DNA of 7,855 bases from a virus (lineage: Duplodnaviria; Heunggongvirae; Uroviricota; Caudoviricetes): IMG/VR virus record IMGVR_UViG_2537561859_000010. The stretch is one strand, 5' to 3'. Made by a program: the position numbers and the translations under genes. Shown piece by piece: positions 2,721 to 7,855 of the stretch (position 1 is its first letter; every line of letters starts with the position of its first letter). Under the pieces are notes generated by a model. It was not told where the DNA came from, did no database searches, and worked only from the letters and a program-made list of their open reading frames with translations.

Positions 2721-3307
2721 TGATGCCTGTTCTGCAAAAACTCCCTTTTTCTGGCTTGCCTTTTTCCGGCATTTGCGGATATAGTTTTTCCGCTGCCGCA
2801 AAATCGGCAGCCGGGCGTGAGAACCCGTGTAACTCGAAGGCGACATATGACGCGCCATGCGTCTTTTTTTGTGTCGCAATCAACGCCACAGAGCGCCAGA
2901 TTATGGTGTGGCGTGTGGTTTGCCGTGCAGGTATGATCCTGTTCGCAATCACATGTTATGCCACTGAGTCAATGGTAGCTCAGGCGGGGCAGCCTCCGGG
3001 CTGGCCGGTATTCTTCGAGGCCGGTATTCTCACCCCCGTCTGGGCTATCGCCATCGAGCGTGAGAACTCCGGCGATAGCAGTTATTTGCTACTCGAAGGA
3101 GGCTGCCTTATGGCTACAACCCTTACCCCCTCACACCCTGAATTTGTCTTTGTGTTTGCCGCTGTCCGTCGCGCAGACCGTCATCCCCGTATCTGCATGC
3201 TTCGCACCGTCGCCGGTGATGAACGCAGTGCCCGCCGTTCCCTTGTCCGTGACTATGTGCTCTCCCTTGCTGCCCGTCTGCCGGTGATGGGGGTGTCCCG
3301 TGCGTAA
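2717..3307 (+). CDS. eta: Eta (long ORF containing kil in frame; translated only from upstream P_LL transcripts)
   Basis: Three consecutive ATGs (2717, 2720, 2723) preceded by GGGGG; the first overlaps the vis stop as ATGA. The frame stays open through the putative P_LE and leader to the kil stop. This matches the published nested eta/kil arrangement in P4. The N-terminal part has odd composition, so real translation is uncertain. Confidence 0.55.
2756..2785 (+). promoter_or_regulatory. Candidate P_LE sigma70 promoter (TTGCCT - 18 bp - TATAGT)
   Basis: -35-like TTGCCT (2756-2761) and -10-like TATAGT (2780-2785). A 7-bp stem-loop (2792-2811) sits at the predicted transcript start. The position is about 320 nt upstream of kil. 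Confidence 0.4.
2978..3045 (+). ncRNA. Candidate CI-like immunity RNA in the P_LE leader (boundaries approximate)
   Basis: A 12-bp stem (2978-2989 pairing with 3034-3045, two G-U pairs) encloses about 44 nt. The enclosed segment carries tandem GGCCGGTATTCT repeats whose CTTCGAG and TTCTCAC cores are complementary to repeated GTGAGAA / CTCGAAG elements upstream (2815-2840) and at the kil SD (3058-3099). Inferred from structure only. Confidence 0.3.
3110..3307 (+). CDS. kil: Kil (65-aa protein, nested in frame at the 3' end of eta)
   Basis: ATG at 3110 with strong SD GAAGGAGG 7 nt upstream. 65 codons, matching the published size of P4 kil, and it shares the eta stop. Confidence 0.7.
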
Positions 3308-6839: not shown

Positions 6840-6846
6840 CCCACCT

Positions 6847-6872
6847 GACCGGCATCTGCCGGTCTTTTTTTT
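6847..6872 (+). terminator. Rho-independent terminator downstream of alpha
   Basis: GACCGGC-ATCT-GCCGGTC (7-bp GC-rich stem) followed by eight T residues, starting 8 nt after the alpha stop. Confidence 0.8.
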
Positions 6873-6890
6873 ATCCCGACCTCCCCCGAA

Positions 6891-7197
6891 GGTGAACAAT
6901 CCACTGTTCACCCTTCACCGTATATTCACCCGTTATCACACTGAAATTAAAAGAGAAAAATGAAAGGTGAACAGTGTGAACAATCAAATCAAAAAAAACT
7001 TTTTTTCTCCCTGTGCGATTTTCAGTACGGGTGATTTATCACCGGTATGAGTCACACCGGCAGAATGCCGGAGGTGAAGAATCGAATGTTCACCCTTCAC
7101 CCATTATTCACCACCTATCATACTGAAATAAAAGGATAAAAAAGAAAGGTGAACAGTGTGAACAGTTCTTTCGAAAAAAAATTTTTTCCTGTACGAT
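6891..7197. repeat. crr-like cis replication region: two ~120-bp direct repeats with a 182-bp period, each bounded by TGTTCACC / GGTGAACA octamers
   Basis: Unit 1 about 6905-7019 and unit 2 about 7087-7197 align along their length (TGTTCACCCTTCACC...CTGAAAT...GAAAGGTGAACAGTGTGAACA...A-run/T-run...CCTGT). The architecture matches the published description of P4 crr. Confidence 0.75.
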
Positions 7198-7473
7198 ATA
7201 GCATCAATCCAAGTAAAAATGCGCTTTCATTTCACATTAACTTACAGCCATTGGTATACGATTAGGTATACGCACAAAAACTGAATTAAACAAAATCATT
7301 AAAAATCAAAGCAATACAATATCTATTCAAACTCCGCCAGCCCACCAATCATGATTGGACGGTGTAAGGACAACACCAACAAAAACAGGAAGTTAGCAGT
7401 CTCAGCAGGACACCGACCAGACGGTGAGGAGACAAAAAAGGATACGCAAAGGAGCCGCGGCTCCTGGCGACAT

Positions 7474-7498
7474 GAAAGCCCACAGATGTGGGCTTTTT
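7474..7498. terminator. Bidirectional intrinsic terminator-like hairpin
   Basis: AGCCCAC-AGAT-GTGGGCT stem-loop flanked by an A-run on one side and TTTTT on the other. It lies 10 nt downstream of the stop of the convergent minus-strand gene. Confidence 0.6.
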
Positions 7499-7507
7499 CG
7501 TTGATGG

Positions 7508-7855
7508 TCAGAACGACCAGTTCACACCAGCCACCGCGTTCCACGGGGATTCCACATCGGCACCGTTGCTATACCCCACCCCGAGATGCCCGCTTAACGT
7601 ACTGCTGAATGAGGCTTTAATACCTGCCTGGTATATTCCACGTCTGCCCGACAAATCATTGACGAAATTACCGTCATTATTCACCTTCACCCGGTTATCA
7701 TCGACAAATTCTTTGCGCACAGCCGCCTTCAGCCACGGCTCAACTTCCATACCGTTCCCCAGACGCATGTTGTAACTCAGCGTTGCACCCAGTTCACGAT
7801 ATATACTGCGGGTATCGACTGATTTCGATTCCATGCCATTGGATAAATGATAGTA
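7508..7855 (-). CDS. 3' end of an outer-membrane beta-barrel protein gene (autotransporter-type translocator C-terminus); 5' part outside the window
   Basis: The frame is open to the window edge (YYHLSNGMESK... upstream of the tracked Met). The C-terminus ...GIKASFSSTLSGHLGVGYSNGADVESPWNAVAGVNWSF shows alternating hydrophobic/polar beta-strand pattern and a terminal aromatic. It does not resemble a tyrosine integrase C-terminus. Confidence 0.5.
   Translation of the reverse strand, partial: YYHLSNGMESKSVDTRSIYRELGATLSYNMRLGNGMEVEPWLKAAVRKEFVDDNRVKVNNDGNFVNDLSGRRGIYQAGIKASFSSTLSGHLGVGYSNGADVESPWNAVAGVNWSF

Follow-up and report, generated by a model that had tools for sequence, protein, structure and literature searches.

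The right-end attachment site of a P4-like satellite prophage very likely integrated in the tmRNA gene ssrA of Escherichia coli

In the satellite phage P4, the attP region (NC_001609 3915-4174) runs in the order crr, a pair of arm repeats, an A+T-rich spacer, a core copied from an RNA gene, a second repeat pair with an inverted copy, and int; the repeat is GGGGGCA, the core copies tRNA-Leu (leuX), and the P4 record annotates the arm repeats at -73, -61, +136 and +148 from the core start, with the inverted one at +176. Islands that use the tmRNA gene, ssrA, as their target have also been described. CP4-57 of E. coli K-12, an island of 22 kb, has no P4 genes for replication or capsid size, and 14 bp at its right end, CCGCCAGCCCACCA, are annotated in RefSeq as the ssrA pseudogene psaA. 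For CP4So of Shewanella oneidensis and the other ssrA islands in Table 1 of PMC10107115 (after Williams 2003), the tabulated account gives a P4-family integrase, a tmRNA-end copy at attR that has lost sequence immediately behind CGCCAGC, and an excision that alters tmRNA; CGCCAGC-CCACCA is listed in that table as the attR-side version, and in several of the islands the loss is larger (-----CA, ----CCA). A P4-type attachment site at ssrA that resembles the attR of CP4-57 is known and ordinary biology.

The stretch of DNA analysed here (the window; 7,855 nucleotides) has ORFs for psu, delta, sid and a 777-aa alpha primase-helicase, named after their RefSeq relatives, and an immunity region at 2779-3055 whose RNAs all score above the Rfam gathering scores (Table 1); every feature by which we recognise a P4-like satellite was found, namely psu, delta, sid, alpha, crr and the CI/C4 immunity RNA. 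Nucleotide homology to P4 covers 6840-7187, which matches P4 X51522/NC_001609 4291-4635, annotated there as crr, at 94.8% identity, and it stops at 7187; the equivalent of crr in a close relative (L001) contains two repeats of about 120 nt. We regard it as highly likely that 7188-7348 is the attR of a P4-like satellite prophage of 10.6-11.5 kb, integrated in ssrA. Its integrase and attL fall outside the window, and we infer the left end of this copy from its relatives.

Table 1. Features of the window; positions are those of the whole stretch.
Feature	Position	Strand	Basis
c4-a1b1 target	2779-2831		Rfam
isrK	2792-2869		71 bits (Rfam)
C4 antisense RNA	2968-3055		74 bits (Rfam)
crr (cis replication region), last P4-homologous stretch	6880-7187	+	94.8% match to P4
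Element-specific right arm of the attachment site, corresponding to the crr-side arm of attP	7188-7325	+	307/5426 E. coli genomes
Two GGTATACG boxes, candidate integrase arm-type sites	7253-7272 (7253-7260, 7265-7272)	+	12-bp period; geometry as in P4
A+T-rich spacer from arm boxes to core; possible bending or IHF region	7273-7325	+	79% A+T
att core, degenerate tmRNA T-loop and acceptor 3' end, TTCAAACTCCGCCAGC-CCACCAA	7326-7348	+	alignment with ssrA; equivalent to K-12 psaA
Hairpins of the trailer	7345-7358; 7361-7377 (loop AGGAC); 7399-7433 enclosing 7411-7426; palindrome 7451-7464	+	
Native ssrA 3' trailer, chromosomal flank	7349-7474	+	directly after ssrA CCA end in empty-site genomes
Intrinsic terminator hairpin, AAAGCCCAC AGAT GTGGGCTTT, then TT	7475-7498	.	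folds, both strands
3' end of ypjA/ehaD, adhesin-like autotransporter, chromosomal, converging on the element	7508-7855	-	PF03797; RefSeq

The original prediction had placed an element boundary within 7198-7507 and taken the convergent beta-barrel gene for chromosomal flank, and genome comparisons bear out both points. The gene is real: the protein from 7511-7855 on the minus strand matches the autotransporter beta-domain PF03797 (E 9e-12), and RefSeq names it ypjA/ehaD. No database sequence matched the complete window at more than 98.6% identity, and its closest genomes (L001 and L382; E. coli 100181 and PapRG-06-5) run from smpB through ssrA, integrase, cargo, psu-delta-sid ... alpha and crr to the interval and ypjA. 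The integrase gene that the earlier note proposed to look for at the other end adjoins an intact ssrA there (L001 9103-10299; L382 2822-4015), and attL in both genomes is the intact ssrA end, so that the core is found at both ends of the element. The arm itself (7188-7330) was present in 307 of the 5426 E. coli genomes, in a single copy each and always in the chromosome.

For the empty site we used an in-silico junction, made of the last 159 nt of ssrA and window positions 7349-7560, as a probe at a coverage of at least 80%. By this measure 2519 of the 5426 complete E. coli genomes (PE164, for example) have ssrA joined straight to 7349-onward and ypjA, with no P4-like genes at the site and no right arm; the best match is 99.7% identical, its sole difference being an extra A at the join, which the chimera had omitted. 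K-12, with CP4-57 in the place of the P4-like element, shares the sequence from ACTCCGCCAGCCCACCA rightwards. Across 24 viral-contig copies from IMG/VR the arm is constant and the element always ends in ...TATTCAAACTCCGCCAGC / ...ATATTTATTCAAACTCCGCCAGC, whether the ypjA flank comes next or a further ssrA island begins there with its left end, CP4-57 included. Tandem arrays, with a second island's left end directly after the P4-like element, were seen at L006, L008, L015, L016, L020, L023 and L027, the second island being CP4-57 in L023 and L027. Scans of metagenomes and genome collections with the 16-mer TTCARACTCCGCCAGC were unspecific, most of the 240 loci being unrelated and about ten useful.

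The closest genomes, the empty site and the other copies of the element all agree, and for this reason we take the core at 7326-7348 as the boundary and place the satellite's right edge at 7348/7349, with chromosome from 7349 on; these comparisons establish the position of the boundary, the empty site and ssrA as the target. One would have to accept a true boundary further right if ypjA were cargo of P4-like elements and the interval internal to them, as the island-like look of the wider region might suggest, ypjA being followed by the recombinase pseudogene pinH and then by ileY. Such an arrangement is exceedingly improbable, given that the 2519 genomes without P4-like genes still join ssrA to this flank, that the same flank follows a different island in K-12, and that in the tandem arrays the element ends at the common core, with other islands instead of ypjA behind it. 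Neither of the two observations that would have spoken against the proposed boundary was made: the match to P4 does not continue past 7500, and ypjA is not a part of the P4-like elements.

The core, TTCAAACTCCGCCAGCCCACCAA, is 23 bp long and aligns with the ssrA 3' end (TTCAACTCCCGCCAGCTCCACCA) over 22-23 nt with two one-base indels. It had been overlooked in the earlier reading, which left the junction without an exact position and reported no recognisable tRNA 3' end; the sequence at this place is a degenerate tmRNA 3' end, and the target is ssrA rather than a tRNA gene. ARAGORN found no tRNA or tmRNA gene in the window, because the core is only a fragment. It does not contain T357 of ssrA, and is exactly the version found in CP4-57, with the T357-less core ACTCCGCCAGC-CCACCA identical in the two; CP4-57 differs in the base after TTCA, which is G there and not A. 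Many copies of the P4-like element have lost 2-10 bp immediately behind GCCAGC(C) at the attR core (the equivalent of window 7341-7356 in L005, L009-L014, L018, L019, L021, L022, L024, L028, L035, L087 and L382), while the window copy is undeleted; deletions similar to the larger ones of the CP4So type occur among these copies and are absent from the window. Such a series of microdeletions is no novelty, and we rejected it as one, since PMC10107115 already lists it, after Williams 2003. The islands of that table differ from the present element in their hosts and cargo.

Strand exchange can be bounded, by comparison of these sequences, to 7334-7348, and inside that span the evidence conflicts. 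On the one hand, the T-less core GCCAGC-CCACCA is retained at the internal junctions of tandem arrays, which suggests that the T-less segment travels with the element. On the other hand, one flank haplotype bears the same junction deletion beside unrelated phages (L290, L378), which suggests that the deletion is inherited with the host. When CP4-57 excises, T357 is lost from ssrA (Wang et al. 2009, as cited in the relevant passage of PMC10107115), whereby exchange would lie to the left of the T, and for CP4So the corresponding base is deleted on excision (PMC5148205). An exchange inside CCACCAA with an element-carried T-less segment was accordingly dropped as a firm claim, both on account of the T357 deletion given in that passage of PMC10107115 and on account of the identical junction deletions beside unrelated phages on one flank haplotype. 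Deletion of T357 inactivates trans-translation (PMC10107115). If the element behaves like CP4-57, precise excision of the satellite would leave an inactive tmRNA without U357 and so switch off trans-translation. The locus is another case of a mobile element holding the functional 3' end of tmRNA, and the effect would be of greater consequence in a satellite than in a cryptic prophage, since excision of a satellite is to be expected once its helper phage becomes active.

The right arm is A+T-rich (70% in 7188-7325, against 45% in the whole window), and the two GGTATACG boxes in it lie, like the palindrome and the hairpin further right, where the original prediction had put them. Within the window GGTATACG occurs at these two places only, both strands having been checked. 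Some 3.6 exact 8-mer direct repeats within 30 bp are expected by chance in 7.8 kb (7855 x 30 / 65536), and the pair, seen inside the window alone, is no more than chance. It becomes significant because in the 40.7 kb of L001, where about 1.2 exact copies are expected, there are five (9033, 9045, 9073 on the minus strand, 20105 and 20117), all of them clustered at the two ends of the element. At the other end, upstream of int, there are two direct boxes, one exact inverted box and one inverted box with a single mismatch. Measured from the core start, the boxes are at -73, -61, +137 and +149, and the inverted ones at +164 and +178; the positions annotated in P4 are nearly identical, the 12-bp period is the same in both, and the order of parts from crr to int is that of P4 attP.

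This geometry is not confined to one element: ten independent ssrA islands have a pair of boxes of 7-8 nt that are phased by 12 bp and begin 73 bp to the left of the core, and the recurrence and the geometry of the boxes are established by these comparisons. The box sequences are of four kinds, GGTATAC[G/C/A], GGTACAC, GGACCAA and TAGGCACC; CP4-57, with its pair at -73 likewise phased by 12 bp, has GGACCAA/TAGGCCCA, and the box sequence thus differs between the element's integrase and K-12 IntA. Arm-type sites that co-evolve with their integrase would be expected to keep their geometry and change their sequence, and the GGTATACG boxes are very probably integrase arm-type sites, to which the integrase would bind. 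It is very unlikely that they are chance repeats or have some other function, whether as operator at the int promoter or as binding site for a replication protein beside crr. The chance level of the pair within the window would fit the former, and the far-end copies just upstream of int are a possible place for an autoregulatory operator; yet copies at both ends keep the geometry of P4's annotated arm repeats, ten islands keep the position and period under changed box sequences, and the P4 alpha-binding ori/crr repeats are another motif, which ends at 7187. The roles of operator and arm-type site could also coexist. In the spacer no exact match to the IHF consensus WATCAANNNNTTR was found; a match with a single mismatch, at 7304-7316, carries no weight in the argument.

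The integrase is, over its full length, 60% identical to K-12 IntA and only 35% identical to P4 Int, and beyond crr there is no nucleotide homology to P4. We conclude that the element has retained the architecture of P4 attP and swapped its specificity. It has the P4 genes for replication, immunity and capsid size (psu, delta, sid, the CI/C4 RNA region, alpha and crr) together with a different integration module, with an IntA-like integrase and an attP that mimics the tmRNA 3' end rather than tRNA-Leu. The tyrosine integrase, encoded beside ssrA at the far end, would place its arm-binding domain on the GGTATACG boxes and its catalytic domain on the core, the A+T-rich spacer would allow the arm to fold back, and strands would be exchanged inside the tmRNA-derived core, somewhere within the bounds given above. 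After integration, the element would provide ssrA with its 3' flank and terminator at attL, and the original downstream DNA, that is the trailer with its palindrome hairpin, the terminator and the convergent ypjA, would have been pushed to the right end.

Besides the boxes, the original prediction had offered the palindrome and the hairpin as recombination or protein-binding motifs, and here it holds for the boxes only. The palindrome and the hairpin, both also present in K-12, are on the chromosomal side, and by that position they are the native ssrA trailer and terminator and not recombination sites of the element. The palindrome, GGAGCCGCGGCTCC, is perfect over 14 bp, for which the chance expectation is about 0.5 per window (7855 / 4^7). 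The terminator hairpin, at 7475-7496 with TT behind it at 7497-7498, folds on both strands (z -2.9 and -4.9); on the plus strand UU comes after a 9-bp stem that overlaps a UUUUU run, and on the minus strand the tail, UUUCAUGU, is weaker. A bidirectional terminator, as first proposed, is plausible from these folds. In empty-site strains the hairpin with its T-run is the first intrinsic terminator after ssrA, and it lies about 10 nt past the stop of ypjA on the other strand; in almost every context the trailer is still followed by a hairpin and T-run, and compensatory changes of GC to AU are seen. A consensus terminator scan did not list this hairpin on either strand, probably due to its stem being extended into the T-run, and flagged a weaker minus-strand hairpin at 7459-7445.

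In the window the whole element stands between ssrA and the trailer, and the alpha terminator (6847-6864) is upstream of the latter. The 7349-7465 segment of the trailer was found in 4170 of the 5426 E. coli genomes (77%), usually in one copy and never annotated. Phages LLS, phiNP and Ayreon have it in their attP regions, at 85-89% identity, and at least 120 viral contigs carry it, where it stands behind a tmRNA 3' end and in front of many unrelated phage sequences (other locations are L002 2500-2672, L270 1-142, L271 2501-2607 and the copies in alignment A2). Ayreon and a few contigs have the trailer without the tmRNA end, in Ayreon behind an annotated promoter. Gene conversion between the copies of host and prophage could also have maintained the likeness. 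Our own reading is that the segment represents a 3' trailer of pre-tmRNA, of which phages that replace the ssrA end would have to carry their own copy.

A six-helix structure was tested on an alignment (A2) of 79 distinct trailer copies, which are related to one another and were gathered by exact match to a 20-mer in the central part of the trailer, whereby conservation there is inflated. The structure has 95.4% of its cells paired, and 94 cells are changed on both sides, against 30.7 in shuffled alignments (0 of 500 shuffles) and 7-12 when the partners are slid by 1-3 columns; compensatory changes support four of the hairpins. The hairpin at 7361-7377 shows the pair types GC/AU and UA/AU/CG, and the palindrome, nearly invariant in these 79 related sequences, has CG changed to UA in six of them and GC changed to GU in fifteen. 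Frequent G-U variants pair on the plus strand only, which is the direction of ssrA. The motif AGGA is found six times in 117 nt of the trailer, where 1.46 are expected (0 of 5000 shuffles), at spacings of 20, 20, 20, 12 and 11, and once on the opposite strand; the supported structure leaves four of these motifs outside its stems, in loops or single-stranded stretches.

Structured segments of this kind have functional analogies in tRNA 3' external transcribed spacers that act as RNAs (3'ETS-leuZ) and in the CsrA-sequestering RNAs CsrB, CsrC and RsmY. These analogies concern the trailer only. By analogy with them the trailer is a structured segment directly after the mature 3' end of a stable RNA and has several A/GGA motifs, CsrB carrying more than the six found here. 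It is conceivable, if unlikely, that 7349-7498 represents a previously undescribed functional RNA, a conserved structured trailer of about 115 nt co-transcribed with tmRNA. Such an RNA could be released by tmRNA 3' processing and act alone, for example by binding CsrA or another GGA-reading protein, instead of serving processing and termination alone, and if a true functional RNA it would have been overlooked in most E. coli genomes and many temperate phages. Rfam searches of the whole window and of 7320-7510 (E up to 10) gave no family at threshold in the interval, with only terminator-level noise there; the RsmY model, whose gathering score is 57, reached 8.7 bits and did so on the terminator alone, and the CsrB-type models were unmatched. 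Literature searches found no described ssrA trailer RNA and no link to CsrA.

The same segment, 7349-7465 with its palindrome, might instead be a DNA-level relic of the attP arm of an LLS-like phage, with sites for Int, Xis and IHF, and not a functional piece of the ssrA transcript. We think this unlikely. Its presence in the attP regions of the three phages and an AGGA spacing near helical repeats are what such a relic would show, and pinH beside ypjA hints at an old prophage; but a relic does not sit well with the compensatory changes that keep four hairpins, with variants that are in many cases G-U pairs, workable on the plus strand only, or with the many unrelated right-hand contexts of the segment. 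In two phage contexts, moreover, the gene beside the trailer is not an integrase (an EcoRII restriction-modification system, for instance), and the more specific proposal of an integrase-proximal attP arm was rejected on this ground.

Coding potential in the trailer was also considered. The ORFs at 7326-7544 on the minus strand and 7351-7605 on the plus strand had no Pfam match, no ORF is conserved across the trailer variants, and the plus-strand ORF is broken in many of them, reading ATG ATT GGA CGG TGA. RefSeq lists a 73-aa hypothetical protein, WP_161399037.1, on the minus strand at window 7324-7545 (L001 20175-20396), which extends over trailer, terminator and ypjA stop; the annotation is very probably spurious, because the protein has no Pfam match and cannot be conserved where the trailer is found in contexts other than ypjA.

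The islands with P4-type integrases each bring their own short trailer and terminator for ssrA at attL (L001 8919-8990; L003 1457-1540). That of the present element begins with AATCATGAT and contains GGATACG and, as both recur in the native trailer, may have arisen from the latter by shortening.

Otherwise near-identical elements differ in the cargo slot that separates int from psu (L001 10322-12522; L382 4065-5648). It holds a single 527-aa hypothetical protein in L382, and in L001 a DUF4435 protein with an AAA ATPase, a pair which we take to be typical of the PARIS defence system. Positions 1-95 of the window probably belong to this variable slot, since most genome matches to the window begin at position 93-96. 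Some copies of the satellite are interrupted by an insertion of the IS21-family element ISEc12.
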